A stretch of 64,000 nucleotides of DNA from Acidimicrobiales bacterium (GCA_041394145.1 JAWKIW010000002.1:379252-443251), one strand, 5' to 3'; counted from the first letter of the stretch, positions 5,780 to 37,177 are shown. The notes: a model not told the origin generated them from the letters alone. Translations and numbers: made by a program.

Positions 5780-6345
5780 GCCCCATGGTCCCCGTCGGCA
5801 GGACGCCGTGGCGTTCGAGCGGCTACGGGGACTCGCACTCGCGGCGCTGGCGCGTCGTCGAGCGTTCGCGGTGCGTCGTAGGGCTGCCGACATGCCAGCG
5901 ACCGGGGGCGAAGACGATCGTCGGCCCGTCGTGCCGCCTCGTCGTCCTCCCGCTGGGGTGCTGTCGACCACAGACCTGGCAACGGTGCACGGCCGACTGT
6001 GAGCAAGGTCGTCGAGGATGTTCACGTCAGCGACCTCGCTGACGAACTCGCCTGTGTCGGGTTCGGCCGGTCGTGATCGGACTTCCGTGTACCCGTGGCA
6101 CCTGGTACCGGTACGTGAGCTACTGCTCCGTCGTGTTCTCGATCCCCGGATCCGTCGGATTCGGGGCAGACAACCCGGATGCCCTCCTCTACCGGGGCAC
6201 CGAGCCTACACGCCCGACGCATCGTGCGACGGGCTCATGGGCGCGACAAGAACCTCATCGCCGTTGGCCCCCGACTGGTATTTCGGGTTCGCGCTGCACT
6301 GCTGAGGCACCGGGGCAACCGGCATCGGACGCGCGAACGGCCGCG

Positions 6346-6416
6346 CGAAGCGCGGTGCGGCGGAACCGGCGAACTGCCCGTTCTCGGTGCGTGCTTATGC
6401 CCGCGGATCTGGGGCG
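6346..6416. repeat. ~75-bp imperfect direct repeat, copy 2 (upstream of large cargo gene)
   Basis: gaagcgcggtgc ... cccgttc ... ttatgcccgcggatctggggcg. Confidence 0.5.
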
Positions 6417-6777
6417 GGCGCGCGTCGAATCGGGTCGGCCCGACCTACCCGGGAGAGGGAGATCGCTCTGTCGTGTCGGTAGGGTGGAGGTTGGGTGTGT
6501 TCGGTGGGTTCGGGATCGACGGGGTCTCGTGCGGACTGGCCCGAGAAAGAAACGAGGAGAGGCGGGTGGTGGTGGCGACCACGTCTGGGTCGATCGGGGC
6601 CGGGGGGCCGTGCGGCGGCCGCGGTGGGCGCCTTGGTCACGGTTCGAACGGTGTGGGTGTCTTGCCGGCGGGACCCCCGGCTCGACGGGCTGCCTCGGAC
6701 GGTGTGGCGGTGGGCTTGTCGGGTGGTGTGACGGGTCGGTGGCGGGGCGGGCGGGTCCTCGTGGCGGGGGTGGTTTC

Positions 6778-9224: not shown

Positions 9225-10919
9225 GTGGCTGCGGTGGTCGGCGGGCGAGCAGTACGGGGTCGGTGTCTCGACGACGCCGCCGAAGACGGCCTGTGGGCCG
9301 AGGCCGGATTCACGGCCGCCGAGGCCCGCCGCTGGACCCGGCTGTACCGCGAATGCACCGACGAGCCTTTCCGGCGCCGGGATCCGGTTGCCAGCGTCGT
9401 CGAGGCCGCCGCTGTCACGGTGAGCGGGCTGCTGCCGACGGGGTGGACCGGGGCGGAGGTCCTCGACGTCGCCGAGCGGCACCAGGTCGTGGGAGAGGTC
9501 CTGCCCGCTGTGGTGCAGATGCTGCCAGACCCGTCACCGGCGGGGTTCGCCGCCGTCGAGGCGGCGGCCGACATCACGGGGATGCCGCTGCTCCACCGGC
9601 TGTGGACGGCGGCTCGGCACCCCGGTCGCGTCGACCACGACGAGCTGGTGGAGGCCATGGCGTGGGCGGCGAGGGCGGTGGCGCTGGGCACCACCCAGGT
9701 GTTGGAGCTGTCGGGGCTGCGGCCGGCCACCTGGGCCGGGTTCCTGGCGACGGCGTCGCCGCCCCCGACGCTGCTCGAGCACCGGCTGTGGCACTACGGG
9801 TGGCGGTGCATGAACGAGATGACCGCCCCCTACCCGTTCACCGGTGCCCTCGGCGCACGGGTCGCGTCGGTCGTCGTCGACCGCAGGCCCTACCGCTCCA
9901 ACGATCAGCGGCGGACGTGGATCTCGCCCGCCGCCGGTGAGGTCTGGTCGGTCGCCCGGCAGGCGCACCTCGACCACGGCGCTCACGTACCGGCGACGCT
10001 CGCTCCCGGCTGGTTGTGGAGCCGCTGTGACCCCCTCCTGTTGGCGCGGCGACCGGTGCCCGACGCCACGCAGATCGAGCGGCTGACCCGGGTGCAGCTG
10101 CGCGACGCGCTCGACGACCTCGGGCTGCCGGTCCCCGAGTGGTCCGACGAGCTGCTCACCGCGGCGGTGGCGTGGGGTACCAGGTACGCCGCCGATCTCG
10201 TCGCCGCCCAGGAGCTGACCTGGGATGTCCCCGGATCACCGCACACGTCCTTGCTCGTGGTCGAGCCAGCTGACTTCGACGAAGGTGAGCTGCTCGCCCG
10301 CGGGTTCCGTCCGTTCGTGTCCGGCTCGAGGACCGACGACGTACTCGGTGTGCTGCGTACCGCCGGGGTACAAGCGGCTCGAACGCGAGGTGACGAGCCG
10401 GTGGGGTGGGCACGAGCTGGTCGCGACGGACGCCGGACGTGGCGCTACGTCCTCGACGTAGCCGCAGACATGGTCGTAGCGCCCGACGACGATCTGGTCG
10501 CCCGATGGCGGCGCGTGGTGGGGACCGTCGCCGCCGAACTCGACAGCCGCCGCGAGCAGCCCCTACGGCCCTGGCCGCTCCAAGGGACCTCGAGGCGCTG
10601 TCGGCAGCCACCGCGCCCGTGGCGGGCATCGACACCGGCTCGACCGACCGGCACGGTCGAACCGCTTAAACGTCTCCCAGCGACGACGTGTGGCGTCGCC
10701 GCGGTCAACGTCTCGGTCTCGGTGGCGCCGACATCGACGGTGAACGACCTGCACCTCCGCACCCTGGTGCGTGTCGTACCGATGGAGAGCCCGAACCGCC
10801 TCGGTCACGACGAACTGGTGTTTGGTGCCCAGACCGGACGCCGGTTGGCCTCCGACAGACGAGGCGGCCCAGGCTCGACAAGCCCTCGACGAGGTCTTTA
10901 CCGCCCGTCGACGCCCTAA
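9225..10919 (+). CDS. hypothetical protein (family duplicated downstream); true 3' end probably ~10.7 kb
   Basis: Contains LEHRLWHYGWRC, EWSDELLTAAVAWGTRYAADLVAAQ and GWARAGRDGRRTWRYVLDVAADMVVAP blocks. These recur in shifted frames at 10.85-12.25 kb. Confidence 0.5.
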   Translation: MAAVVGGRAVRGRCLDDAAEDGLWAEAGFTAAEARRWTRLYRECTDEPFRRRDPVASVVEAAAVTVSGLLPTGWTGAEVLDVAERHQVVGEVLPAVVQMLPDPSPAGFAAVEAAADITGMPLLHRLWTAARHPGRVDHDELVEAMAWAARAVALGTTQVLELSGLRPATWAGFLATASPPPTLLEHRLWHYGWRCMNEMTAPYPFTGALGARVASVVVDRRPYRSNDQRRTWISPAAGEVWSVARQAHLDHGAHVPATLAPGWLWSRCDPLLLARRPVPDATQIERLTRVQLRDALDDLGLPVPEWSDELLTAAVAWGTRYAADLVAAQELTWDVPGSPHTSLLVVEPADFDEGELLARGFRPFVSGSRTDDVLGVLRTAGVQAARTRGDEPVGWARAGRDGRRTWRYVLDVAADMVVAPDDDLVARWRRVVGTVAAELDSRREQPLRPWPLQGTSRRCRQPPRPWRASTPARPTGTVEPLKRLPATTCGVAAVNVSVSVAPTSTVNDLHLRTLVRVVPMESPNRLGHDELVFGAQTGRRLASDRRGGPGSTSPRRGLYRPSTP

Positions 10920-12558: not shown

Positions 12559-14091
12559 ATGGCGAAGAGGTCGAAGGTGGAGTTGTACAGGCAGATCCGC
12601 AAGACCCGCGAGCGTGAGCAGCTCGGGATCCGGGCGTTGGCGCGCCGGTTCGGGGTTCATCGCCGCGCGATGTGCGCCAGGCGTTGGCGTCGGCGGTGCC
12701 GCCGCCGCGCAAGCCGTGCAGCGGGCGTCGCCGGTGCTGGATCGGTGGAAGCCGATCATCGATGGCTGGTTGGAGGCCGACCGGGCGGTGCCGAAGAAGC
12801 AGCGGCACACGGCCCGGCGGGTGTGGCAGCGGCTGGTCGCCGAGCACGGCGCCGAGATCGGCGAGTCGACCGGTGCGCCGCTTACGTGGCGGCGTGGAAG
12901 CCGGCAGCAAGGCGCTGGTGGAGGTGGCGGTGCCCCAGACCCATCCGCTGGGCGCGGAGGCCGAGGTGGACTTCGGGGCGGTCAGCTTCTATCTCGACGG
13001 GGTGCTGTGTGAGGGCCACATGTTCGTGATGCGCTTGTCGGCGTCGGCCAAGGGGTTCCATCAGGTGTATCCGAACGAGGCCCAGCAGGCGTTCCTCGAT
13101 GGCCATGTCCGGGCCTTCGCCCATTTCAGTGGGGTGCCGGGCCGGGTGCGCTATGACAACTTGAAGCCGGCGGTGGAGCGGGTGCTGCGGGGCCGGGACC
13201 GCGCCGAGTCCGAACGGTTCAGTGGCGCTCGCATTCGCCACTACAGGTTCCGACTCGATTGTTCTTCTGTCAGCCCGGCCCCGACGGCGCCCGCCCAGAA
13301 GGTGGCGTGGAAGGAGAGGTGGGCCGGTTCCGTCGCCGTCACCTGGTCCCGATGCCCAACGTCGCCTCGTTCGCCGAGCTCAACGACCTGATCGCGGCCG
13401 CCGACGCCGCCGATGACGCCCGCTGGGTGGCGGGTCGACGCCTCAGCGTCGGTGACCACTTCGCCCTGGAGGCCCCACGCTGGGGTGCCTGCCCGACGAG
13501 GCGTTCGACCCGGCGTTGATGCTGCGGCCCCGGGTGGACACGAAGTCCCGGGTGTGTGTGCGTCAGTGCTTCTACTCAGTGCCGGTGCGCTACGTCCGGG
13601 CGACGCATCGATGTGCGTCTGGGCGCCGACACGATCGAGGCGCTCGACGGGCCCCGGGTGGTGGCCACCCACCCCGGTTGTTGGCCAAAGGCACCGAGAG
13701 CTTGGTGCTGGACCACTACCTGGAGGTGCTACGGCTCAAGCCCGGGGCGCTGCCAGGCGCCACCGCGCTGGCTCGAGCCCGGGCGTCGGGCGCGTTCAGC
13801 GCCGACCACGAAGACGTATTGGTCCGCGGCCCGCCGACGCCTCAACGGCGCCGGCGCACCCAGGCCCTGATCGAGGTCCTGCTGGCCGCAGGCCCTGCCC
13901 GCCGACGCCGTGCGCGCCGGGATCCGAGCGGCGCTACGGATCCCGGTTCAGTCGACCCCGCCATCGTCGTCGTCGGTGCCCGACGAGCCCTCGAGGACCA
14001 CGACGCACGGTCGTGGCGATCGGTAATCGCCCGCTACGACCGCCCACCGCCGACGATCGCCCACTACGACCAGCTCCTGGAGGCCCGATGA
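12559..14091 (+). pseudogene. istA: IS21 transposase IstA (HTH + DDE), multiple frameshifts
   Basis: MAKRSKVELYRQIRKTREREQLGIRALARRFGVHRR is the N-terminal HTH. GHMFVMRLSASAKGFHQVYPNEAQQAFLDGHVRAFAHFSGVPGRVRYDNLKPAV is the catalytic core. C-terminal pieces (VCVRQCFYSVPVRY..., HYLEVLRLKPGALPGATAL) lie in other frames. Confidence 0.7.
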
Positions 14092-14862
14092 ACACCGACA
14101 CCGCCGCCGGTGCCACCGTCGACGCCGCAGCCCGCGAGCTGCGCCTACCGGCGGTGCGCGACCACACGCCACGACAGCCGCCGAAGCCAAACGGGCCCGC
14201 TCCACCCACCTGGGGTTCCTCGCCGACGTGCTCACCGTCGAGGTCGACGACCGAGCCGAACGACGACAGGCCCGGCGCATCCACGAGGCGCACTTCCCGC
14301 GCCTCAAACGCCTCGCCGACTTCCGACCTCGACGCCGCCCCCACCGTGGCCCCCACCGACCTCCCCGCCACCCTCGCCGCCGGCACCTTCCTCGACGTCG
14401 GCGAACCCGTCGTGTTGCTCGGCGACTCCGGCACCGGCAAGACCCACCTGCTCATCGGCACCGGCCTCGCCGCCTGCGAAGCCGGACGACGAGTCCACCG
14501 CCACCTGCGCACAACTCGTCAACGAACTCGTCGAAGCCGCCGACGAACGCCGCCTCGCCCGCCTCGTCGCCCGCTACGGCGCCGCCTCGACCTGCTGTGC
14601 GTCGACGAGCTCGGCTACGTCCAACTCGACAGCCGCGGCGCCGAGCTGTTGTTCCAAGTGCTCACCGAACGAGACGAACGAGCATCCGTGGCCGTCGCGT
14701 CCAACCTCCCCGTTCAGCGAATGGGGCCAGATCATCACCGACGCCCGCCTCGTCGCCGCCGTCATCGACCGGCTCACCTTCAACGCCCACATCATCGAAA
14801 CCGGCACCCGCTCTACCGTCTGCGCGCCAGCAGCCGCACCCGTCACCAACAAGACCGCCTGA
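14088..14862 (+). pseudogene. istB: IS21 helper ATPase IstB, frameshifted
   Basis: Starts MNTDTAAGATVDAAARELRLPAVRDH. Walker A VLLGDSGTGKTHLLIG. LDLLCVDELGYVQLD and DRLTFNAHIIETG lie in shifted frames. Confidence 0.65.
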
Positions 14863-15320
14863 ACGCCCCGAACATCCGCACCCGTCACCCACCCGACCCG
14901 ACCCGAGAGGCTCTACGGGCCACACAGCAGCCAGTTCCTCGGCTCGACGCCGACCGAAGGGGTGGGGCCAAATCAGACGAGCACGGTGGGGCCAATCCAG
15001 GTTGACATTCCCGGCAGAGCGCCGAAGGGGCCGATAGGCCCGGCTTCATAACCATCGGGGACACCGTCGAGGGTCGGAAATCGACACGGCGGCTCCGGCT
15101 GCCGATACTGCCTCTCGGTGGGGCGGCTCGTCGGCCCGGGAGGCTGTCATGGATGCCGGTACCGCCATGTCCCTGCGCTCGCGCTCAGTGAGCCTTTGCA
15201 CTGCTGATGATCCAGCGGAGGTAGCTGCCGCCGGGTTCCTGGCCCGCTACGGGACGGACCCTCAGTCGTATCATTCATGACCTGCGGGTCTTCCAGTGGG
15301 CGGCTGACGCTCGCATCGAC

Positions 15321-20607: not shown

Positions 20608-21651
20608 ATGAACCAGTTCCCGTGTTTGATCCGTTCGTCGTCGCCCGGTGGGGAGGCCCGCTTCGCCCTGGGTGATCCGCTCGTGGACGCCTACCTCGAG
20701 TTCGTCGCGGGCCGGGCCCGACCGAACACGTTGCGGGCGGTCGCCCATGACTTGAAGACGTTCTTCACGGTGATCGACAAGGCGCCCGCGGCGGTGGTCA
20801 CCGCCGATGTGTTCGACTTCCTCGCTGACCAACGTGGTGACCGCACCGTGATCCGTCTGTCTGATCGCGAGTCGGGGTTGTCGGCTCGCACGATCGCCCG
20901 GCGGTTGTCGTCGGTGTCGGGCTTGTACGCGTATCTGATCGCTCGGGGCGACACCGGCGTGGACACCAACCCGGTGCCGCGTGGCCTGTCGACCCGGCGG
21001 CGAGGCGGACGCACCCAGATCGTGCCCCTGGTGCGGGTGCCGCGCACCCTGCCCAAGATCTTGTCGCCCGCCGAGGTGAACGCACTGGTGGGTGCGCTGC
21101 GCACCCACCGGGACCGGGCGATGGTGTTCGCGATGGTGCTGGGAGGACTGCGCCGCTGCGAGGTCCTCGGTCTGCGCCTGGCCGACATCCGCGTGCCGGA
21201 CCGGTCGGTGTTCATCGCCGAAGGCAAGGGCGGCCACCAACGCATCGTGCCGATCAGCAACCCGTTCTTCGCGGCGGTCGGCCACTACCTGCGCTCGGAA
21301 CGACCCGCGGTGGACACCGACCGCGTCTTCGTCACCTTGAAGGGCCCCACCCGGGGGCACCCGATGACCCCCGACGGCATCGACAAGATCCTCCAGGCTG
21401 CCCGCCGACGCGGCGGGCTGGAACGGGCGACGTGTCACCAGCTGCGCCACACCTGCCTGACCCGCCTGCGCGAAGCCGGCATGGCCCTCGAAGCGGTCCA
21501 GGCCCAGGCCGGGCACGTCTCGATCGAGTCGACCCGGATCTACCTGCACCTCACCAACGACTGGCTCGCCAACGAATACCGGCGGGCCAGCGAACGCATC
21601 GACGCCGACCACACCGCCGAGCTCCTCGAGGCTCAGGAGATCAACCGATGA
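20608..21651 (+). CDS. tyrosine recombinase (XerC/D-like integrase), intact
   Basis: 347 aa. Catalytic-domain motifs present: LRRCEVLGLRLADI, HQLRHTCLTRLREAGMALEAVQAQAGHVSIESTRIYLH (the Y is the nucleophile). Confidence 0.85.
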   Translation: MNQFPCLIRSSSPGGEARFALGDPLVDAYLEFVAGRARPNTLRAVAHDLKTFFTVIDKAPAAVVTADVFDFLADQRGDRTVIRLSDRESGLSARTIARRLSSVSGLYAYLIARGDTGVDTNPVPRGLSTRRRGGRTQIVPLVRVPRTLPKILSPAEVNALVGALRTHRDRAMVFAMVLGGLRRCEVLGLRLADIRVPDRSVFIAEGKGGHQRIVPISNPFFAAVGHYLRSERPAVDTDRVFVTLKGPTRGHPMTPDGIDKILQAARRRGGLERATCHQLRHTCLTRLREAGMALEAVQAQAGHVSIESTRIYLHLTNDWLANEYRRASERIDADHTAELLEAQEINR

Positions 21652-22930
21652 CTGCCCTTGCTGCGGTCCCCGAACCTGCCACACCGAGCACCCAAGCCGA
21701 CCGCGACTGGGCCGAGCTGTCCGCCACTGCCCCCCAGCTGACCTCGACGATGCGCCGCTACCTGATCCAGCTCGGCACCTTCCTCGCGCCCCGCAGCGTC
21801 GACGTCGCCGACTCGACACTGCGCCCGTTCGCACGCTGGCTCACCACCACCACCGACGTCCGCGTCGTCGCTGGCATCGAACGCCACCACATCGAGGACT
21901 ACAAGGTGTGGCTCGCCGCCCGACCCGGCGCCCGCCCCGGCACCACCCTCGCCAAGAACACCCAACGCCAACGGCTGCGCACGATCCGGATCTTCCTCGA
22001 ACGCCTCATCGAATGGGACTGGCCCGACGCCCCCGGTCGGAACCCGATCCTGCACGGTGACATCCCACCGCGCCCCGAACCGCTCCCCAAGTTCCTCAAC
22101 GACCAAGACGCCGCCAAGTTCATGGCCGCCGCCCGCGCCCACCCCCTCCCGCGCTACCGCCTCGTCGCCGAAATGCTCGCCCGCACCGGCATGCGCGTCA
22201 GCGAGCTGTGCGACCTCACCGCCGATGCCGTCACCCGCATCGGTGACGCCCACTGGCTCCGCATCCCCGTCGGCAAGCTCCGCAACGACCGGTTCATCCC
22301 CCTGCACCCCGACCTCACCCTCGCCGACTGGACCGCCACCAACGCCAACCACATCCGCTCTACAACCGGCTCCTCGCCGACCACCACAAACCCTCGACCG
22401 GCGCACCGCCTACCGCATCGTCGCGGCCCGTCGGCCGCACCGCCGGCATCCACGTGCACCCCCACCAGCTCCGCCACACCCTCGCCACCCAAGCCATCAA
22501 CCGCGGCATGCGCCTCGAAGCCATCGCCGCGCTCCTCGGCCACCGCTCCCTGGAGATGACCCTCGTCTACGCCCGCATCGCCGACCGCGTCGTCGCCGAC
22601 GAATACGCCTCGGTCTGCCAACAGATCGACGCCCTCTACAACACCGCCGCCACCCCCAGCGCCCTGCCCGCCGACATCGAAACCGCCGCCATGACCCGAC
22701 TACGCGAACAAGCCCACGCCCGCATGCTCGGCAACGGACTCTGCACCCGCCCCGCCGAACTCGAATGCCGCATGGAAACCATCTGCGAGACCTGCGCCTA
22801 CTTCACCACCGGCCCCGAGTTCGTCCCCGTCCTCCTCCGCCAACGAGACCACGCCCGCCACCACCACCAACCCGACCGCGCCACCCTCTACGACCAGCTC
22901 CTCGACCAAGCCGCCAAGGACACCCCTTGA
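21648..22930 (+). CDS. second tyrosine recombinase, start overlaps upstream stop (ATGA); apparent frameshifts at ~22.35-22.44 kb
   Basis: ARTGMRVSELCDL, GKLRNDRFIPLHP, then RTAYRIVAA / GRTAGIHVHPHQLRHTLATQAINRGMRLEAIAALLGHRSLEMTLVYARI in other frames. Confidence 0.7.
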
Positions 22931-25007: not shown

Positions 25008-25170
25008 GATGTCGAGCGAGCTGATCCAGCCCAGCCATGACGACAGCTTGGAGCTGCCCGTCGAGCTGCTGCTGCGTCGCGCACGGCCGCTGCCACCCCA
25101 CGAGGAGATGGTGATCGACGATCTCACCAGCGAAGAGGGTGACGCCTTCCTCGCCGCGCTACGACAGTGA
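25008..25170 (+). CDS. vapB: antitoxin of VapBC-type TA pair (54 aa)
   Basis: MSSELIQPSHDDSLELPVELLLRRARPLPPHEEMVIDDLTSEEGDAFLAALRQ. Its stop overlaps the toxin start (GTGA). Confidence 0.6.
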
Positions 25171-25601
25171 CGCCGCCTACCGGCCGCAGCGCCGTCGTCA
25201 TCGACATCGATGTCTTCGGAGCGGATCTCGTACCCAGTTCTGCTCTGGCAGGGCGATACGAGCCGCTGATCGTCGGACGGCCGGCGTTCATCTCCTTCCA
25301 GACCGCCGCTGAGCTGCGCTATGGAGCCATGCTCCGCAGCTGGGGCGACGCACGCTTGCTGAAGCTCGAAGCGAGGATCGCCGCAGCCGAGGTCGTGCAC
25401 ACCGGCCCAGATCTGATCGAGGTCTACGCGCGACTCCGGGTGGCATGCCAGCGCGCAGGCCACGGCCTGTCCCAGCGCGAACACGACGCAGACCGCTGGA
25501 TCGCTGCAACCGCAATCCGGCTCGGTCTCCCCCTCGTGTCGAACGACACGATCTTCGAGGGCGTGCCGGGACTCGTCCTGGAGTCCGCCCACGACGAATA
25601 G
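25167..25601 (+). CDS. vapC: PIN-domain ribonuclease toxin VapC
   Basis: VIDIDVF...D, AAELRYG, EVYARLRV, D.WIAATAIRLGLPLVSNDTIFEGVPGL: conserved acidic PIN residues in canonical order. Confidence 0.8.
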   Translation: MTPPTGRSAVVIDIDVFGADLVPSSALAGRYEPLIVGRPAFISFQTAAELRYGAMLRSWGDARLLKLEARIAAAEVVHTGPDLIEVYARLRVACQRAGHGLSQREHDADRWIAATAIRLGLPLVSNDTIFEGVPGLVLESAHDE

Positions 25602-25832
25602 GGCGCCACCCCAACCGACGCCTATCCCAGATCAGCAGATCAGCGCGAACGCCGGCCGCGTCCCTGATCGCCGGCTCCGCCAATGCGCTTCCCATGGCGC
25701 ACTGCGGTCGCCCGCCGGTGAGTCACCCGGAGCGGGCGGCGAGCCGGACCGGTCGCCGGGATCCGCGGGCCGGTCCGTCGACCATGGGCGCGGGATAGGG
25801 TCACGTCGGTTCGGCGGACGAGAAGCCGGGAG

Positions 25833-27014
25833 GTGGGGGCGGTGGCGCTCGACGACACATACGCGCCGGTGGACAGCGTCGATCGGGAGGCGGCACGCAC
25901 CGCGGTGAGGGACCTGACGGTTGCGATGATCGACCACTTCGTGGACGGTTCTGCCAACGTTGCGTGCTCGGGGCTGGGGCTGTGGAACGTCGTTGCGGTG
26001 CTGGCGTCGGGAGCCGACGGTGCGACCGCCGACGAGTTGGCGTCGCTGATCGGGGTGAGCGCGGACCGCGCCGCCGCCGCGGTAACGGGCCTCGACACCG
26101 ACGTGGACGCCGTCGACGGGGTGGCCCACGCTCTGGGGATGTGGAGCCAGGTGCCCACCTACCGGGCCTGGCGCGAGGAGCTGCCGACGATCGGGGTCGC
26201 CCACCTCGGCGACGACACCGACCTGGCCGCCTGGGTCGCCGACCACACCGGCGGCGCCATCCCCGGCTTCGACCTCACGATCCCATCCGACGCCCTGCTG
26301 GTGCTCGCCGACCTGATCCGGGTGAAGGTCACCTGGGCCGACGCCTTCCCCAAGGACAGCACCCGCCACCGGGCCTTCCGGGCTCCCGGCGGCGACGCGG
26401 ACGTGTCGACCATGACCAAGACCGACGCCACCGACTGCCTGGCGGTGGTGGGACGCACGCTCACCTACGACGTGCCCACCACCGCCGGAGAGGGCCCGGC
26501 GACGGTGATGCGCTTCGCCATCGGTGCCGCCGATGCCTCACCCGCCGAGGTCATCGGCGACATCATCGCCCCGCACCAGCGACGGCGACCCCTGTCGGCG
26601 TGCACCTGGTCGGACCTGCCCGACGACGCCACCACCGACAGCGATCTCCCGCCGGGCTCCTTCGGCCGGTTCACGGTGTTCCTCCCCAAGTTCGCCACGA
26701 CGACCAGCCTCGACCTGCTCAGCCTCCTCGACGTCCTCGGTGCTCGCCGCTGCCAGACCGACCAGGCTGGGTTCACGCGCATGTCCCCCGAGCCACTCAT
26801 GGTCGAGCAAGCGCTGCAGGACAGTGAGGTGAAGCTCGACGAGGCCGGCGTCGAGGCCACGGTCGTCACCCGCTCGTCCATGGTCACCACCGGTAGGTAC
26901 AAGAGTCCGGACCTCGAGGTCTTCTTCGACCGACCCTTCGGCTACGCCCTGGTCACCGAAGATACCGGCCTGCCCCTCTTCGCTGGTTGGGTCGCCGACC
27001 CCACCGTCACCTGA
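25833..27014 (+). CDS. serpin (serine protease inhibitor family)
   Basis: Hinge/RCL EAGVEATVVTRSSMVTTGRY and FDRPFGYALV, plus N-terminal FVDGSANVACSGLGLWNVVAVLASGADGATADELASL: serpin shutter and breach motifs. Confidence 0.75.
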   Translation: MGAVALDDTYAPVDSVDREAARTAVRDLTVAMIDHFVDGSANVACSGLGLWNVVAVLASGADGATADELASLIGVSADRAAAAVTGLDTDVDAVDGVAHALGMWSQVPTYRAWREELPTIGVAHLGDDTDLAAWVADHTGGAIPGFDLTIPSDALLVLADLIRVKVTWADAFPKDSTRHRAFRAPGGDADVSTMTKTDATDCLAVVGRTLTYDVPTTAGEGPATVMRFAIGAADASPAEVIGDIIAPHQRRRPLSACTWSDLPDDATTDSDLPPGSFGRFTVFLPKFATTTSLDLLSLLDVLGARRCQTDQAGFTRMSPEPLMVEQALQDSEVKLDEAGVEATVVTRSSMVTTGRYKSPDLEVFFDRPFGYALVTEDTGLPLFAGWVADPTVT

Positions 27015-27164
27015 TGGTGACGCCGCACCGTGTAGCGGGGCACCCAGGTTGCGTGCGGTCGATGGCCGGCCGAGGGCGGCGTGCTTCGGTCCACCGGTGC
27101 GATGTCCAGAGGCCGCTCGTGGGTGGAAGGTGACGGCTCGCCGGCTCGACCTCGGTGGCGTCGT

Positions 27165-28493
27165 TCAACCGGATGAGGTGTCGTCGTGGTCGCTCGGCCC
27201 GTTGCCGTGAGGGAGCTCGTCAACGACGGCGGGTCGAAGGTTGTTCTCCTTGATGAAGCGCAGTCGCTGTTGCGCTCGTTGTCGCGCCATGACGCGGTCT
27301 TGGCCGTGTTCGACGGCGGCAACCCCTGCAGAGAAGGTGACCGGCCGTCCCGCTATCAGGCGTCGATGGTGGTGGTCGTCGAGAAGAGCGCGCAGCCGCC
27401 GGGTGAGCTCGTGCTCGTCGAGGTTGGGGACAGCCACGACGAACTCGTCGCCGCCCCAGCGGCCGACCTGACCTTCGGGGTCGACGTCGCCCAGCAGGCG
27501 CGCCACGGTGCACAGGGCCTGGTCGCCGGCGTCGTAGTTGTCCGCCGTGGCGTTGAAGCCGCGCAGGTCGTCGAGATCGACGAACGCCACCGCGAACGGG
27601 ACAGGCAAAGCGTTGAGCGCCCGTTCGGTCCCGACGCGGTTCAACACGCCGGTGAGCCCATCGTGGTCGGCGCGTTCCTCCGCGTCGGACAGTCGACGCC
27701 TGAGATCCCGGATCTCGGCCTGCGTGCCCCGCACCGAGACCCCGGCGGTGGCTTCGAGGTGCTCGAGGCGCTGCACCAGCGGCACGAGGCGCTCCCAACG
27801 GGCGTCACTTCGGGCGGCCCACAAAGCGTTGGCATGGGTCGGTGACGGCCCCGCCCGCGGCGTGACCTGCAGCTCGATCGCCACGCAACGGTCCCCGAGG
27901 TCGACGTCGCCACCGCAACCGGCACGGATGCGGCGAGCCAACTGGGTGACGCCGTCGGCGGGCAGCCGGTCGACGAGCACGGCCAGCTCGCTGGGGCCCA
28001 CCCGACCGACGGTGACCGCGTCGGCGACGGTGGCATGCAGGCGGCGGGCCAGCTCGTCGAGGACACGGTCACCCACCTCGCGGCCCACATCCCGGTTGAG
28101 GTGGCGCAACCCGACCAGGTTCACCAGCGCCACCCCGTACGACAGCCGGGTCCCGGCCGATCGGGCCCGCCCGTCGACCTCGGCCAGCCGCTGGAGGAAC
28201 ACGACCTCGGAATCCCACGGCTCATCGCCCCGCGCCACTCCGACAGTATTGCCCTCGCTCCAAGCCCGCACCGAGGCGACCGACGAAGTGTCAACGGCTG
28301 CTCCCCGAACGCCGGCTATGTGCGCGACAACTACGGCGAGCTCCACGTCTGGTTCGCACGGTGGTGCGTCGTAGCTGTCCGAGACGTGAACCTGGCCCGG
28401 GACTCGGTGGCCTCGTGGTCCGTAGCGTTCCCGACGGCGACCTCCCTGACATCGCCGACTGCTGGCCGACGTGGCCGACCAGGCGCAACGCAC
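27165..28493 (-). CDS. diguanylate cyclase: degenerate N-terminal GGDEF-like domain + coiled coil + canonical GGDEF domain
   Basis: C-terminal domain DGLTGVLNRVGTERAL...VAFVDLDDLRGFNATADNYDAGDQAL...GRWGGDEFVVAV. N-terminal region SYGVALVNLVGLRHLNRDVGREVGDRVLDELARRL lacks GGDEF. GTG start 12 bp after upstream stop. Confidence 0.75.
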   Translation of the reverse strand: MRCAWSATSASSRRCQGGRRRERYGPRGHRVPGQVHVSDSYDAPPCEPDVELAVVVAHIAGVRGAAVDTSSVASVRAWSEGNTVGVARGDEPWDSEVVFLQRLAEVDGRARSAGTRLSYGVALVNLVGLRHLNRDVGREVGDRVLDELARRLHATVADAVTVGRVGPSELAVLVDRLPADGVTQLARRIRAGCGGDVDLGDRCVAIELQVTPRAGPSPTHANALWAARSDARWERLVPLVQRLEHLEATAGVSVRGTQAEIRDLRRRLSDAEERADHDGLTGVLNRVGTERALNALPVPFAVAFVDLDDLRGFNATADNYDAGDQALCTVARLLGDVDPEGQVGRWGGDEFVVAVPNLDEHELTRRLRALLDDHHHRRLIAGRPVTFSAGVAAVEHGQDRVMARQRAQQRLRFIKENNLRPAVVDELPHGNGPSDHDDTSSG

Positions 28494-28508
28494 CTCGCCG
28501 GGCAGGTG

Positions 28509-29074
28509 TCAGTTGAGGCGGTAGCGGGTGGTGCCGTCGCTGATGAGGTCGTGGCCGGGCTCGTCGTTGAACCGGGCGTAGAAGGCGTCGTCGTAGGCCG
28601 CGACAGCGCCGTCCCAGCCGTCGGGTTCGGCGGCGGTAACGCCGGCGCACACGTGGACGTCGGTGAGGAGCGGGTCGAAGTCCGGGAGTGCCCGGATGCG
28701 GGCGGCGGTGGCAGCGACGGCGTCGGCGAGCGTCGGGGCGTCGATCGTGTAGCCGCAGGTCGCCCACCCGGAGAAGATGATGAGGCGTCCGTCGCCGCCC
28801 AGATTCGCGTCCGGTCCGTCGCCGGCGACACTGGGTTCGGTGTCACTACTGGTGTCGCCGTACGGGTCGTGGTTGACGATGGAGTCCCGCCACCAAGGCA
28901 GGATGAACCACCCGTACGGCGGGCGGGGTGCTGGCCGGCACCCGGCGGCCAGCGCGCCGAACAGCGTGTACTTCTGGTGTGGTCCCAGCGCCGGTGGCTG
29001 CCGCCGTGGTCGTACTCGAGGGTCGCTTTCGCGAACGGGTCCGGGATGCCGGTGACGACCAGGTAGGTGGCCAT
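28509..29074 (-). CDS. hypothetical protein with one apparent frameshift near 28.99 kb
   Basis: MATYLVVTGIPDPFAKATLEYDHGG, then in another frame KYTLFGALAAGC...WWRDSIVNHDPYGD...GRLIIFSGWATCGYTIDAPTLADAVAATAARIRALPDFDPLLTDVHVCAG...YDDAFYARFNDEPGHDLISDGTTRYRLN-stop. Not in ORF track because of the frame change. Confidence 0.45.
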
Positions 29075-29408: not shown

Positions 29409-30490
29409 TCACGATCCATGGTCATGTCGACGAGTTGTGGGAGGTATTCTCGGCCTGCTCTCGCCGGAGCGAGCCGCGGTTCGCCAAGTGCCGTGGTGCG
29501 CTACTCGTTGACATGCTCATGTCGAGGACGGCTTTCAAGCGCAGCCGATCGCCAGGTAGGTCCGGCTTGCGGGTCTATCCCAGATCGCCGGCCTGGTTGA
29601 TGCGCTCGACGAAGCAGTGCCGGCGAGTGGGCTCATCGGCGAGACTGGCTCATGGCATTCGGACAAACAGGGCGGGTCCACCCGCGACTTCCCGACAGAC
29701 AAAGGAGTTGCTCGATCTCTACGTACGCGGGACACAGCGATTTCCGAGACGCTCGTTGGCCCGATGGGGTTCACGCAATGCCAGGCCGCCGGTAGGTTCA
29801 CCCGAGACGAGGCCGACGCGCCCATCACACACCAACTTCGCGACGCGGCCGATGCCGCGGAGGAGGGTGTGGGCGAATCCGACGCACACGCGCCTGATCG
29901 GCTTCGCTCTGCGGCGGAGCAAGACCGAGTTGGCCTCACCAAGGTTCCGGACGGGGTTGCCTGCGGCGGAACTGCAACGGCGTGGGTGGATCGTCGTCGA
30001 ACCTGGAGTGAGCAGCAGCGTCCCATAACACCTACAGCGCTCAGAAACAACGTACCCGCTGCCCCTGAACGCCGGCTCCGCCGCGACGTTGCTGTCTGGC
30101 GCCGGGACGGCGCGGCCGTAGATCGGGCGGCTCGTCCGGCGGCCGTTGACGGTGGTGGGCTACGAGGACATACGGGCCGTGGGCCGTCGGCGAGCGATGC
30201 ACGCCGCTTCTTCCACGTCGGCCATAACGGGTGACCGTCCTGAACGCCTCCCGGCAGACGTCTCGGATGGCCTGACGCGGAGAGCCGGGACTCGTCGGGT
30301 CGCGCGACGGTTCGGGCGTCCAGCAAGGGGTTTGAGGGTGAGCCCTGTTCCGCCCGTCCCGGTCTGACTGATTCCACGACCGAGATGTGGAGACCGTCGC
30401 TGAGTTCGGGGTGGGTCTGAATAGGTAGAGCCGTGTCGTCCGTGGCTGCGTCGTGTGCCCGGGCGTCCGAACCCGTCAGGAGAACCCCTC

Positions 30491-30727
30491 ATGGACATCG
30501 ACTCCCTGCCCGACATGCTCCGGGTCGACGAGGCTGCGGCGGTGCTGCGGATCAGTCGCAGCCGGGCCTATGAGGAGGTCGCGGCGTTCCAGCGCACGGG
30601 CGGTGTCGAGGGCTTAGCGTCGATCCGCATCGGTCGCACGCTGCGGGTCCTCGAAGCGGGCGCTGCTGGCGTGGATCGAGGCGCAGCTTGGCGGCCCGAG
30701 CGCTGCGTGACCGTCGCCGGCTCGTGA
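30491..30727 (+). CDS. xis: excisionase / MerR-like HTH DNA-binding protein (Xis family); indel near 30645 (canonical reading ends 30710)
   Basis: MDIDSLPDMLRVDEAAAVLRISRSRAYEEVAAFQRTGGVEGLASIRIGRTLRV. In the +1 frame PSKRALLAWIEAQLGGPSAA-stop is the canonical excisionase tail. Confidence 0.7.
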   Translation: MDIDSLPDMLRVDEAAAVLRISRSRAYEEVAAFQRTGGVEGLASIRIGRTLRVLEAGAAGVDRGAAWRPERCVTVAGS

Positions 30728-31615: not shown

Positions 31616-34154
31616 GTGGAGGTTCGTGTCGTGTTGAACATCGGGAAGCTGGCGGCGGGCAAGGCCGGCTACTACGTGTCGCTGGCTGCTGGGGTCGAGG
31701 ACTACTACACTGACACGGCGAACCTCCGCCGAGCCCGACGGCGCCGAGCTGCTCGGCTTGGCCATTGCCGGCACCGTGACGGCCGACGATCTGGTCACGG
31801 TGCTGGGTGGGCGGGCGCCGGGGACTGGCGAGCGGCTGACGGGCTCGGGTGGCGGGGTTCGATCTGGACGTTCCGGGCGCCGAAGTCGGTGTCGTTGCTG
31901 TACGGGTTGGGCGAGGCCGACACGGTCGCCGGCGTGGTGGTCGATCGCGCGACGAGGCGGCTGTGGACGCCGCGGTCGGCTACCTCGAGCGGGCCGCCTG
32001 GTGCGACCCGCCGCCGGGTCGACGGGACGATCACCCGGTTCGCGGGGAGGGGTCTGCTGCGGCCGGGTTCGGCACCAGACGTCGCGGCGGGGACCCGACC
32101 CTGCACACCCACGTGCTGGTGGCGAACATGACCTGCACACCCGGCGGCCGGTGGGGGCGCTGGACGGGCGACGGGTCTACGAGCACGCCTTGATCGCCGG
32201 CTACTTCTACCAGGCCCAGCTGCGGGCCGAGCTGATCCGCCGCCTCGGCGTCGAGTGGGACTGCGGTCAACGGCTGTGCCGACGTCGCCGGTGTCGACGA
32301 CGGGGTGATCGCCGCGCCTTCCGGCGGCGCGCCGAGATCCTCGAACGTCTGACCAGCGCGGCCAGCGGTCGGCCCGGCGCAGGCGGCCACGCTCGACACC
32401 CGCCGCGCCAAGGACTACCGCCACGGCCGGGTCGACGCCACCGAGCTGCGGAGCCGCGGGCCGAACGCGGCGACCGGGTCGGGTTCGGACCGGCACAGGT
32501 GGCCGGGTTGTCGACGCCGGCGTCCGACGAACCCTCCTCCCTGGCCCAGGTCGGCGACATCTTCCGCGATCTGGCCGGCCCCGACGGGCTCACCAAGCAC
32601 AAGAGCACCTTCACCCGCCCCGACGTGCTGCGAGCGTTCGCGTCGGCGCTGCCCGACGGCGCCGACGTCGCCGCCATCGAAGACCTCGCCAGCTTCTACC
32701 TGTTCGCCACCGAACCGGTCGCAGTCGGTGACGTGCACGGCGCCGAGGCGTGGACGACCCAGGACCTCCTCGACACCGAACGACGGGTGCTCGCCGGCAT
32801 CGCCGCCCGCCGACACGCCGGCACCGGCATCGCCGACCGGGCCGAGGTGGCCGCCGCCATCGGTGCCCGGCCCACCATCGGTGACGAGCAGGCCGACATG
32901 GTCGCCGACCTGTGCCTGGCCGGACACGGCGTCGACGTCGTGGTGGGTGCCGCCGGCACCGGCAAGACCTTCGCCCTCGACACCGCCCGCGTCGCTTGGG
33001 AGCGCTCCGGGTACCGGGTCCACGGCGCCGCCCTGTCGGCGCGGGCCGCCGCCGAGCTGCAGGCCGGCTCGGGCATCGAGTCGACCACGATCGCCCGGCT
33101 GCTCGGCCAGATCGACGCCGGCCGGACCCGACTCGATACCCGGGCGGTCGTGGTCGTCGACGAAGCCGGCATGGTCGGCACCCGGACCCTGGACCGGCTC
33201 CACCAGGCGACCTCGGCCGCCGGCGCCAAGCTGGTGCTCGTCGGTGACCCCGCCCAGCTCCCCGAGATCGACGCCGGCGGCGCCTTCGCGGCGCTCACCG
33301 AACGCCTCGACCCGATCCGCCTCGTCGACAACCGCCGCCAGGTCCACCACTGGGAACGCGGCGCCCTCGACGACCTGCGCTCCGGCCGGATCGCCGCCGC
33401 CGTGGCCACCTACCAGCAACGGCAGCGCATCGTGGTCGTCGCCGACCCCGACGAGCTGCACACCCGCGTCGTCCAAGACTGGTTCGCCTCCCACCAGGCA
33501 GGGGACCAGGCGCTCATGGTCGCCGCGCACCGCGCCGAGGTCCGAGACCTCAACCAACGAGCACGCCAGCTGCTCGACGACGCCGGCCTCCTCGGCCCGA
33601 CCCGCCTACGGGTCGGCGGCCACGAGTTCGCCGAAGGCGACCGGGTCATGGCCGTCGGCCGCAACCACTACGACCTCGACATCCTCAACGGCGACCTCGG
33701 CACCATCACCGGCATCGGACCCAACGGCGACATCACCTTCCACGCCGACCGAACGGCCGAGCCACGCACGATGCCCGCCGCCCGCATCGAAGCAGGCTTC
33801 CTCGACCACGGCTACGCCCGCACCAACCACAAGACCCAAGGCGCTACGGTCGACCGCACCTTCATCCTCGGCGACGACGGCGACCTCGACCGCCAAGCCG
33901 CCTACGCCGCCCTGTCCCGGGGTCGCATCGAGAACCGCCTCTACGTGCCGGACCCCGACGACGACCTCCTCCTGGACACACCAGCTGCCTCCCCGATCCA
34001 CGAGCACGTCACCTACGAGCTGTCCCGCGACCGATCCCAACGCCTCGCCACCGACCACCTCGACGCCCAGGCCGGCCGCGCCGACGACCTGGACGCCCAC
34101 CTGCCCCACGCCCACCCCGATCCCGAACCCACCGTCGACAACGACCTCTGGTGA
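31616..34154 (+). CDS. MobF-family conjugative relaxase (TrwC/TraA N-terminal relaxase + RecD-like helicase); relaxase domain split over 3 frames
   Basis: MEVRVVLNIGKLAAGKAGYYVSLAAGVEDYY (YY/DYY motif), WTFRAPKSVSLLYG, DPTLHTHVLVANMT (HxH motif), WRALDGRRVYEHALIAGYFYQAQLRAEL, helicase motifs GAAGTGKTF, VVVDEAGMV, LVGDPAQLP. Confidence 0.85.
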
Positions 34155-34904: not shown

Positions 34905-35058
34905 CTACGACATCTTCGAGGGCACCGAGCAGATCCAGCAGCTCGTGATCGCCCGGGCCATCTCCGGCCTGCGCGTCGAGTAGTCCTGACCTGCGCGTTC
35001 TTCTGTCAGAGGCCCGCTCACCGGAGCGGGCCTCTGGCGTTGTCGGACCCGGGATCGG
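34905..35058. repeat. attR: 154-bp direct repeat (copy 2), displaced ACAD 3' fragment + hairpin
   Basis: Encodes ...YDIFEGTEQIQQLVIARAISGLRVE-stop with no upstream gene body. Hairpin at 35008-35037. Confidence 0.8.
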
Positions 35059-35096
35059 TCCTGTCCCGCGGGCGCTCGGGTAGCGTGCGTGCGTGG

Positions 35097-35313
35097 CGCG
35101 GCGTCGAGACCGCTTGACCCTGAGCAGCTGGAGCCTCCGGCGGGCGCTGGATCGATCGTGGGCCGAGGCCCAGCGGGGCTCGCCGACCCGGAGCTCCGGG
35201 CCTACCTCGAGGACTCGATGCGCCGGCTCGATGCCAGGGGGCCGGCCCCGCTGGTCACCCGCGAGGAGCTCCTGGCGCAGACCGAGGTCCTCGACGGGTA
35301 GTGCCCCTCCGAG
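35097..35313. repeat. ~215-bp direct repeat, chromosomal copy just outside attR
   Basis: Same sequence with two compensating 1-bp indels. The antitoxin-like ORF ends with TAG here. Confidence 0.6.
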
Positions 35314-35443
35314 ACGTCGAGGAGCTCGGCCACATCATCAGGGACGGCGGTCCCGAGGACGTCGAACGCCTCCACCGAGCCGAGCGGCGGCCCCGCTGGA
35401 CCCGACCATCCTGCGTGTCACACGCCCTCGTCATGATGGGAGC

Positions 35444-37177
35444 ATGGTCGAGGGATCGGGGTTCTCCGACGTGTCGCTGGAGCTGGTCGGTGCCGTCGGG
35501 GGCATCGTCGGTGCAGCAGCCGTGGACCCGGCGTCGGCGTCCGACGAGGACCTGTGTGCGGCGATGGTGACGTTGGAGGGGGTGCGGCGGGCCGTCGACG
35601 CCCTGCAGGCGCGGGTGGTGGCCGAGGCCGACGCCCGCGACGTGTGCAACCTCGCCGACGGGCTGTCCACGGCGCGGTGGCTCGCCCGCGAAGCCGGCCT
35701 GGCCGGGGCGACGGCCAAGCAGCGGGTCAAGGTCGCCAACGTCCTGTGTCGCCACCTCGACGTCGTCCACCAGGCACTGGCCGACGGTCGCATCTCGTGG
35801 GACCACGCCCGGGTGCTGGCCGATCTGGTGAACCCCCGTGTCGTCGACCAGGTCGTCGCCCTGCAGGGCGAGCTGGTGGCGCTGGCGGAGCTGTGCGGGT
35901 TCGAGCGGTGGCGCCGCGAGGTCACCGCCGTCGTGGCCCGGTTGGACCACGACGGTGGCTACGACCCCGCCGCGGACCTGGCGCGGAACCGGCTGCGGGT
36001 CGGACCGGTGCTGGGCGGCGTCGCCGACGTGTCCGGCTCGTTGACCGGTGACCACGCCGTGCTCGCGGCGCACGCCATCGACACCGTCGCCGACGAGCTG
36101 TTCCACCGCTACCGCCGCGACCACGACCAGTGCCCCGACATCGAGGTGCCGTCGCGGGCGACCTTGCGGGCACTGGCCCTGGTCGAGCTGTGCCGCCGCG
36201 GCCTCGCCACCGACCCCCGCTCGTCCACGCCGCCGCGGCCCGAGATCGTGGTCGTCACGCCGGCGTCGGATCCCCTCGATGCCGATGCGCTCGCCGATGC
36301 GGCCACCCTCGACGGTGTGCCGTTGCCGGACGGCACGATGCGGCTGCTGGCCTGTGACGCTGCCTGGCGGGCGCTGATCGTGGACCACCTCGGCGTCCCG
36401 TTGGACCTGGGTCGCCGCGTCCGGTTCGCCACCCCCGACCAACGGCTGGCACTGGCCGTGCGCGACGGCGGCTGCGTCTTCCCCGGCTGTGACGCCCCAC
36501 CGTCGTGGTGCGACGCCCACCACCTCGACGAGTTCGTCCGCCACCGCGGCCACACCGATCTCGTTCGGCTCGCCCTGCTGTGCCGCCACCACCACGGCGT
36601 CACCCACCGCCGGGGCTGGACGATGCGGTCCACGGGCGACGGGTGGTTCCGGTGGCAGACGCCGACCGGCCGCACCCTCCACTCCCAACGCCACGGCCGC
36701 CGACGAGCCGGTGCCGATCCCCGGGGAGGCCGGCCACCACGAGCGCCACGCACCACCGACCACCTCGGGCCGCGCGAGATGGCCTGCACCTCCACCACCC
36801 TCTGTGCCACCGCTCCCATCACCGCCACGGTGCCCTCGAGTGGCGTGGCGACAGGTGCTCGTCGGGTCGCGACGCGCACCTGGTCGACTCCGGCGGTGCC
36901 GCCGCTCGTCGGCGTCAGGCGGGGTCGAGCACGAAGAGCGGGATCACCCGCTCGGTGGCCGCCTGGTAGCTGTCGTAGTCGGGCCAGACCGCAGTGGCGC
37001 GGGCCCACCACGTCGACTTCTCGTCGCCGTGCACCTCCCGAACCGTGTAGTCGCCGAGGACGTCGCCGTCCTGGAGCCGCGCGACGGCGTTGGCGCGGAC
37101 GTTGTGCACCCACTGCGGGTTGGTCGGCGCACCACCCATCGAGCCGACCACGGCGTAGCGGCCCTCGCCGTCGCTGA
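35444..37177 (+). CDS. DUF222 + HNH endonuclease protein (REP13E12-like); real C-terminus probably ~36.75 kb, ORF reads through to 37177
   Basis: MVEGSGFSDVSLELVGAVGGIVGAAAVDPASASDEDLCAAMVTLEGVRRAVDALQARVVAEAD. C-terminal HNH GGCVFPGCDAPPSWCDAHHLDEFVRHRGHTDLVRLALLCRHHHGVTHRRGW. Confidence 0.7.
   Translation: MVEGSGFSDVSLELVGAVGGIVGAAAVDPASASDEDLCAAMVTLEGVRRAVDALQARVVAEADARDVCNLADGLSTARWLAREAGLAGATAKQRVKVANVLCRHLDVVHQALADGRISWDHARVLADLVNPRVVDQVVALQGELVALAELCGFERWRREVTAVVARLDHDGGYDPAADLARNRLRVGPVLGGVADVSGSLTGDHAVLAAHAIDTVADELFHRYRRDHDQCPDIEVPSRATLRALALVELCRRGLATDPRSSTPPRPEIVVVTPASDPLDADALADAATLDGVPLPDGTMRLLACDAAWRALIVDHLGVPLDLGRRVRFATPDQRLALAVRDGGCVFPGCDAPPSWCDAHHLDEFVRHRGHTDLVRLALLCRHHHGVTHRRGWTMRSTGDGWFRWQTPTGRTLHSQRHGRRRAGADPRGGRPPRAPRTTDHLGPREMACTSTTLCATAPITATVPSSGVATGARRVATRTWSTPAVPPLVGVRRGRARRAGSPARWPPGSCRSRARPQWRGPTTSTSRRRAPPEPCSRRGRRRPGAARRRWRGRCAPTAGWSAHHPSSRPRRSGPRRR

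Follow-up and report, generated by a model that had tools for sequence, protein, structure and literature searches.

In actinomycetes, integrative mobilisable and conjugative elements carry direct repeats by which the target gene regains its 3′ end, a terminal tyrosine integrase, a relaxase, a helix-turn-helix protein and a toxin–antitoxin module. All of these are found in an element located in the 64,000-nucleotide stretch of Acidimicrobiales DNA analysed here (the window, about 70% GC, with positions counted from its first letter). Compared with the actinomycete elements, the target is a protein-coding acyl-CoA dehydrogenase gene and not a tRNA gene, no transfer ATPase is recognised among the open reading frames (ORFs) scanned, and extra recombinases, an IS21-type remnant and several broken genes lie inside. 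Between 25.0 and 29.1 kb, the element carries a VapBC-type toxin–antitoxin pair, a serpin gene, a gene for a tandem-GGDEF diguanylate cyclase and a small orphan gene. This interval is quite probably a mosaic of four accessory modules, each acquired on its own, in a 32.3-kb integrative, probably mobilisable, element.

The modules have described relatives. Type II VapBC systems combine a PIN domain with four acidic residues, a small acidic upstream partner whose gene overlaps that of the toxin by 4 nt, and a frequent location on mobile DNA; the pair in the window shares each of these traits. In the case of the serpin, the closest relatives form an actinobacterial clade (Streptomyces, Kribbella, Nocardia and Acidimicrobiales records), with which it shares PF00079, a full fold, an exposed loop and no apparent signal peptide. 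Gly and Gln at the presumed positions of Ser56 and His334 of alpha-1-antitrypsin are likewise common to the clade and the window serpin, together with P17 Glu, P15 Gly, P14 Val and P12 Ala. The cyclase resembles stalk-plus-GGDEF cyclases (SiaD as the best model, PleD as the reference) in its predicted coiled-coil stalk, GGDEF motif, DxD-type metal site and Asn/Asp guanine contacts.

Borders of the integrative element

The borders and the mobility genes of the element are as follows.

1467–2699: acyl-CoA dehydrogenase (ACAD) gene, assigned from Pfam
2621–2774, no strand: attL-like direct repeat, which takes in the final 79 bp of the ACAD gene, the terminator hairpin of that gene and a few further bases
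2822–4330, plus strand: tyrosine integrase, 48 bp inside attL, PF00589 at 9e-18
31758–34154, plus strand: relaxase/helicase of the TrwC/TraI type, PF13604 (AAA_30) at 3e-52, PF08751 at 3.6e-5 and PF22232, with a weak TrwC N-terminal match
34905–35058, no strand: attR-like direct repeat, 154 bp, about 96% identical to 2621–2774

The two 154-bp repeats flank 2775–34904, and the identity between them drops sharply at both edges. One end of the element thus combines a flanking direct repeat with a site-specific recombinase. Ordinary metabolic genes lie beyond both repeats, and between about 2.8 kb and about 37 kb a codon-usage score shows only a weak signal of the host type. No tRNA gene was found in the whole 64-kb window, and the repeats involve none. 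The sequence strongly supports 2775–34904 as an integrative element inserted at the 3′ end of the acyl-CoA dehydrogenase gene of this Acidimicrobiales bacterium. The AAA_30 match, together with a TraI helicase-associated match and the weak TrwC match, points to a relaxase of the kind expected in mobilisable or conjugative elements, and the element is probably mobilisable. The initial annotation had regarded the cargo as horizontally carried on an island, which agrees with the position of its genes between the 154-bp repeats, in an element with an attL-adjacent tyrosine integrase and a TrwC/TraI-type relaxase. A relaxase-based search for related elements in a genome collection returned two distant loci only, without usable context.

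Mosaic structure of the 25.0–29.1 kb interval

Genes in the interval were called from an ORF listing, a frame-specific GC plot and the codon-usage score.

25009–25170, plus strand: VapB-like putative antitoxin, 53 residues, acidic, no recognised domain
25167–25601, plus strand: PIN-domain VapC-like putative toxin, 144 residues, PF01850 at 1.9e-9
25661–27183, plus strand: serpin module, consisting of the gene and about 170 nt on each side; the sole block common to the window and the contigs L001 and L002 (93% nucleotide identity, blastn)
25842–27014, plus strand: serpin coding sequence, 390 residues from GTG 25842 or 393 residues from GTG 25833
27165–28238, minus strand: predicted tandem-GGDEF diguanylate cyclase, 357 residues from GTG 28238, convergent with the serpin gene
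28509–29074, minus strand: frameshifted orphan gene ("hypothetical"), in which the frame changes near 28975–28985

Each module has its own block of nucleotide homology. The VapBC blocks stop at about 25005 on one side and about 25600 on the other, the cyclase homology spans only 27427–28141, and that of the orphan gene spans only 28425–29074. Around the serpin module, the sequence on both sides in L001 and L002 is unrelated to the window. The last few codons of the cyclase gene lie inside the serpin block, and the cyclase carries a C-terminal tail not present in its homologs, as expected at a recombination junction of this block. Furthermore, the neighbours differ in every related locus checked, including those of the serpin homologs P0002, P0003, P0006 and P0008, the cyclase homologs P0098–P0100 and the orphan homolog P0200; a conserved operon was rejected, as no shared partner occurs around any of them. 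Serpin relatives with 36–47% identity are situated among housekeeping genes or beside an SNF2-family helicase. Because the homologs of each gene have unrelated neighbours and the homology stops at the gene borders, the interval is not a functional unit, and the coherent VapBC–serpin–GGDEF cluster proposed by the initial annotation is not sustained. Accessory DNA probably accumulates at this spot in the element, which would leave the modules as neighbours with no joint function.

Several observations weigh against a mosaic of independent modules on a mobilisable element. Both close serpin copies, just two loci in all, have a PIN-type toxin–antitoxin pair no more than about 1 kb away, and the two may be linked. 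The orphan gene and one of the recombinases could be frameshifted through assembly errors of the metagenome-assembled genome (MAG) and not through decay. Among the element ORFs scanned, no type IV secretion component, coupling protein, VirB4 or FtsK-type translocase or transfer ATPase is recognised, and approximately half of the element ORFs have no family match. No empty attB site or excised circle turned up, the genome-collection search having been made with the relaxase, and the mobility of the element is inferred from structure alone.

In L001, which carries the serpin with 89% identity, the PIN–Phd pair belongs to another family and is located on the other side of the serpin. This cassette is surrounded by repeats of about 130 nt (L001 2660–2790 and 3737–3867), which are 86–92% identical and 1077 nt apart, and beyond the second one lies another, partial gene on the minus strand. 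The arrangement looks like a tandem duplication of the toxin–antitoxin cassette. An integron-like or repeat-flanked serpin cassette was also considered and was rejected, since no significant repeats surround 25661–27183 and the L001 repeats belong to that contig's own toxin–antitoxin cassettes. A defence system was rejected as well, with no PADLOC match for any of the ten proteins scanned.

The serpin and its altered hinge

Two parts of the serpin distinguish it from most of its relatives.

26601–26663, plus strand: 21-residue acidic insertion, residues 257–277, before strand s6A, where the model confidence is lower
26841–26930, plus strand: hinge and reactive-centre loop, residues 337–366, with G339 as P15 and ATVVT at P12–P8

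A full-length serpin with an intact hinge had been described initially, and its length and fold are borne out. The protein matches PF00079 at 5e-32 (112 bits against a cut-off of 27), which places it in the superfamily, and it is 100% identical to the public protein "MAG: serpin family protein [Acidimicrobiales bacterium]". The AlphaFold model (pLDDT 88, pTM 0.88) has the complete fold and an exposed reactive-centre loop, with low confidence (pLDDT < 50) just at residues 344–358. Foldseek matches it to PAI-1, alpha-1-antitrypsin and 1SNG, covering native and cleaved serpins, with a TM score of approximately 0.7 over about 400 columns; of these structures, PAI-1 and the native-state thermophilic serpin 1SNG serve best as references. 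Inspection, with no predictor run, reveals no apparent signal peptide, and the serpin is apparently cytoplasmic.

The hinge itself departs from what had been described, although the quoted hinge and loop string, EAGVEATVVTRSSMVTTGRY, is found in the protein. In inhibitory serpins, the hinge from P17 to P9 follows the consensus ExGTEAAAA, with small residues at P12–P9 (PMC8233489). The window serpin reads E-A-G-V-E-A-T-V-V at these positions. In an alignment of 78 actinobacterial sequences, including the window protein and P0002, P12–P8 is AAAVT in all 76 other relatives, ATVVT in the window and ATIIT in the 89%-identical P0002. Compared with the clade, therefore, Thr-Val-Val replaces Ala-Ala-Val at P11–P9. 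On the sequence, this deviation lowers the claim of a canonical inhibitor without proving inactivity, and the near-neutral divergence described below weakens the claim further.

The loop also differs between the two close copies. Counting from P15 (G339), P1 is T353, with R355, two residues on, as the alternative, whereas in P0002 P1 is Gly and P1′ is Arg; 9 of the approximately 20 loop residues differ between them. The Met-(x)-Arg pattern common in the loops of the relatives is not kept in the window serpin. Within the alignment, the 21-residue insertion is found only in the window serpin and P0002 and is lineage-specific. In contrast, the Gly and Gln residues are clade-wide and are not defects of the window serpin; their positions were assigned by comparison with alpha-1-antitrypsin, in which they correspond to Ser56 and His334.

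Compared with relatives at 36–47% identity among housekeeping genes, the window serpin resides on an integrative element and diverges at a near-neutral rate. The ratio of non-synonymous to synonymous substitution rates (dN/dS) against the L001 copy is 0.85, from 71 changes, 21 of them synonymous and 50 non-synonymous, and is not distinguishable from 1 (p = 0.58). In the loop it is 2.7 (about 14 changes) and elsewhere 0.69, neither of which differs significantly from 1. The lineage is also the most divergent of its group, with 41–47% identity to P0003–P0006, which are 53–67% identical among themselves. Because of the ATVVT hinge, the insertion, the near-neutral divergence and this position in the group, the serpin appears, from its sequence, to be under relaxed constraint after capture by mobile DNA. 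It may be a poor or altered inhibitor, heading to loss or to a new role, and not a conserved housekeeping inhibitor.

The main alternative is diversifying selection on an active inhibitor, and it is rather unlikely: the serpin would be fully active, a target protease would drive the evolution of the loop in an arms race, the changed hinge would be tolerated and the element would spread an anti-protease function. The complete open frame in both serpin copies fits such a protein, as do the high-confidence predicted fold with its exposed loop, the retention of P17 Glu, P15 Gly and P12 Ala, and the concentration of substitutions in the loop (2.7 against 0.69 elsewhere). High loop variability is equally expected from diversifying selection, bulky residues at P11–P9 are no proof of lost inhibition, and the dN/dS estimate comes from a single sequence pair with 71 substitutions. 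However, the loop excess lacks statistical significance (p = 0.5 for about 14 changes), and constraint is weak in the remainder of the serpin as well (0.69; p = 0.17 in the test of neutrality). The serpin has lost the AAAVT hinge from which none of the 76 other relatives departs, the relatives' common Met-x-Arg or Met-Arg loop pattern is gone, and no protease gene is recognised among the element ORFs scanned. Relaxed constraint is thus the preferred reading of the serpin.

The remark that serpins are rarely island-borne holds for this clade on catalogued mobile DNA. Of 72,556 plasmids searched by tblastn with the window serpin, 6 carry relatives, each of them a large actinobacterial replicon, and no catalogued phage does. 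Exact-sequence look-ups of P0001 and P0005 returned no contig on record. A PDB match named "Superinfection exclusion protein" (9hbk) was considered as a link from the serpin to mobile-element defence and was discarded, as the literature on it concerns poxviruses and not bacteria. The hinge-changed lineage is a natural experiment on the hinge bulk that the serpin mechanism tolerates.

The frameshifted orphan gene and the assembly

From ATG 29074, the orphan gene has approximately 31 sensible codons, after which the coding signal continues in another frame to TGA 28509–28511, as judged from frame-specific GC and translation. A search of 1.8 billion representative proteins yielded a single true homolog family, P0200, which is intact with 178 residues and is 64% identical. 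In a DNA alignment with the P0200 locus (L012), the window has 2 extra nt at about 28975–28985. Because of this 2-nt insertion and the frame change relative to the intact P0200, the orphan gene is disrupted in the assembly.

P0200 adjoins no cyclase in any of its contigs, and 270 nt separate the orphan gene from the revised cyclase start. The convergent two-gene unit of the initial annotation survives only in part: the GGDEF gene is indeed on the minus strand and convergent with the serpin gene, but its "hypothetical" partner is frameshifted and lies across a 270-nt gap. Within this gap (28239–28508), a coding-like third-position GC signal occurs in another frame at 28300–28450. The L012 homology runs 76 nt beyond the stop of the orphan gene.

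It is improbable that the frameshifts, and possibly the juxtaposition of the modules, are artefacts of MAG assembly, generated by indel errors or by the chimeric joining of strains. The source is a MAG, at least two genes of the element are frameshifted and the 11–20 kb region is poor in clean ORFs, all of which an artefact could produce; yet a clean repeat pair surrounds the element in a continuous contig reported as 443 kb, the frames of the serpin, the VapBC genes and the cyclase are intact, and the borders of the serpin block are identical in two independent contigs, L001 and L002.

The VapBC-type pair

The two genes of the pair overlap by 4 nt in the sequence GTGA, in which the GTG start of the PIN gene lies on the stop codon of the 53-residue ORF, and the VapBC pair with an overlapping stop and start had accordingly been read correctly (25009–25170 and 25167–25601). 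The PIN protein scores 38.6 bits against PF01850, above the cut-off of 23.6. The residues of its acidic quartet, D13, E49, D109 and D127, each show at least 95% conservation across 40 homologs. Among solved structures, it is closest to chain B of PDB 3DBO, VapC-5 of Mycobacterium tuberculosis.

The 53-residue protein has no match in Pfam or NCBIfam even at E = 10, and no meaningful PDB profile match. These profile searches detected none of the DNA-binding domains of antitoxins (ribbon-helix-helix, AbrB, Phd/YefM or helix-turn-helix). Nevertheless, its family is large, with at least 541 homolog clusters scored, mostly of 53 residues and labelled "hypothetical", and the 36 aligned homologs are 64–94% identical to the window copy. 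A small partner overlapping the toxin gene is also kept with it: of 80 metagenome loci fetched, 67 had at least 450 nt downstream and were counted, and a VapC homolog (54–85% identity) lies directly 3′ of the 53-residue gene in 53 of them. The dN/dS of the 53-residue gene is 0.12–0.24 and that of the VapC gene about 0.1, with a range of 0.09–0.24 for both genes, and in sequence terms both are under strong purifying selection. Compared with other type II VapBC systems, the partner is only 53 residues long, has no recognisable DNA-binding domain and is unusually conserved.

Sequence comparison thus confirms a conserved, widespread two-gene module. Its two genes are probably coupled in translation, the 53-residue protein would neutralise the RNase activity of the PIN protein, and the pair may stabilise the element by addiction. 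The 53-residue family, which none of the domain libraries searched contains, accompanies a VapC-type PIN toxin, and it may be useful beyond this locus.

Several VapBC copies in other loci lie beside integrases, and one lies beside a relaxase homolog. A tyrosine integrase is located downstream of the 53-residue gene in L045 and L057, the latter also with a relaxase homolog. Some copies of the 53-residue gene are orphans without VapC. In L079 (444–653), the gene is joined to the apparent last residues of VapC after an internal deletion, leaving a remnant that keeps the VapC C-terminus. VapBC loci adjoining homologs of the acyl-CoA dehydrogenase and the F420-dependent reductase of the window were dismissed as coincidence, as the identities are just 61–62% and 44%, respectively, and are paralog-like.

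A bolder reading is decidedly improbable. The serpin would be a fast-evolving cytoplasmic protease decoy and not a decaying gene, with its loop and hinge tuned against a serine protease of the host or of a rival, for example an antitoxin-degrading one of the Lon/Clp type. If true, the decoy could explain the PIN-type toxin–antitoxin pairs beside both known serpin copies. A lesser novelty would be a large, as yet unnamed family of antitoxins without a DNA-binding domain, defined by the 53-residue VapC partner.

The tandem-GGDEF cyclase

The cyclase consists of two GGDEF parts connected by a predicted stalk.

27918–28151, minus strand: N-terminal degenerate GGDEF core, GPSEL, in which the first metal-binding Asp is replaced
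27243–27671, minus strand: C-terminal canonical GGDEF domain, GRWGGDEF, behind a predicted coiled-coil stalk

The open frame extends to 28493, the start used by the public annotation, and the protein is 100% identical to the public "MAG: diguanylate cyclase" of an Acidimicrobiales bacterium, a model of 442 residues. The closest homologs, with 329–346 residues, begin at the equivalent of GTG 28238, and the codon-usage score also selects this start. Because these two lines agree, the gene probably begins at 28238 and not at 28493, and the first 85 residues of the public model are probably untranslated.

Pfam detects two PF00990 stretches in the full-length protein. Scanned alone, the N-terminal part matches at 8.7e-10 over profile positions 29–105 of 161 and the C-terminal part at 5e-17 over positions 1–157 of 161; the two parts are 36% identical over 76 residues. 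Metal, guanine and I-site positions were read off an alignment of homologs, with PleD as the reference for the active site and the I-site. Only in the C-terminal domain are the GGDEF motif (GRWGGDEF), the metal site (DLD) and the guanine contacts (Asn and Asp) present. More distant members of the family have GGDEF in both domains. The degenerate N-terminal domain in front of a canonical one is therefore as initially described. The suggested allosteric or I-site module, in contrast, is contradicted: neither domain has an RxxD motif five residues before the GG(D/E)EF position, where the C-terminal domain has DPEG, and all eight aligned homologs lack the I-site too.

Among the NCBIfam models, the best is SiaD, which covers the stalk and the domain with 91.6 bits against an equivalog cut-off of 290. 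The cyclase falls below every NCBIfam equivalog cut-off (SiaD, DgcN, PleD and others) and is not an ortholog of a named cyclase. Compared with the stalk-plus-GGDEF cyclases, the sensor position is occupied by a catalytically dead GGDEF core and not by a REC, PAS or GAF domain, and RxxD is missing. The C-terminal domain is predicted to produce cyclic di-GMP as a stalk-mediated dimer, with no product inhibition through an I-site, and the dead N-terminal core may act as a regulatory or dimerisation domain. A text search of the literature for GGDEF–GGDEF tandems returned only GGDEF–EAL tandems.

The interval as a whole

It is extremely unlikely that the small gene, the cyclase, the serpin and the VapBC pair were co-selected as parts of a functional cluster acting in one pathway, such as a defence or biofilm-switch island: the genes are adjacent within 4 kb and the L001 serpin relative also lies beside a PIN-type toxin–antitoxin pair, but both strands are used and each gene has its own flanks, the homology blocks end at the gene borders, no partner is common to any related locus, the L001 pair is of a different family on the opposite side of the serpin, no protein matches a PADLOC defence model, and one member is frameshifted. 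The independent patchwork is accordingly retained. Its parts are ordinary members of known families, and the serpin and the cyclase already bear these names in the public MAG record. The biochemical activities assigned to them, including those of the toxin and antitoxin, and the addiction role are predictions, and an effect of the cargo on the host envelope or biofilm is pure speculation.

The locus serves as a worked example of an actinobacterial integrative element gathering unrelated passenger genes, for which the cyclase start, the broken gene and the element borders are now corrected. Neither the 53-residue family nor the hinge-variant serpin alters the current understanding unless biochemistry shows something unexpected.

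Other features of the element

Further genes were identified in the element outside the interval.

20608–21651, plus strand: second tyrosine recombinase, intact, PF00589 at 1e-32 and a SAM-like N-terminal domain
about 21648–22930: third recombinase, directly after the second, frameshifted and split between two frames near 22330–22400 (three-frame translation)
30455–30727, plus strand: small helix-turn-helix protein upstream of the relaxase gene, with weak HTH_23 and HTH_28 matches

The third recombinase is either a pseudogene or the product of an assembly indel. Very few clean ORFs exist between 11 and 20 kb. An IstB/IS21-type ATPase segment (PF01695 at 2e-18) is located inside a 530-residue ORF at 13413–15005, which suggests an insertion-sequence remnant inside the element. 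No Rfam family was found in 20–36 kb. A scan of 24.5–29.5 kb for consensus promoters and terminators, uninformative at 70% GC, yielded neither. The element's two longest ORFs, 6073–9117 (1014 residues) and 9225–10919 (564 residues), have no match in Pfam or PADLOC and show a good coding signal. Directly outside attR, a DUF222-family gene (35093–37177) is followed by core genes, including those of an F420H2-dependent reductase and a zinc alcohol dehydrogenase.

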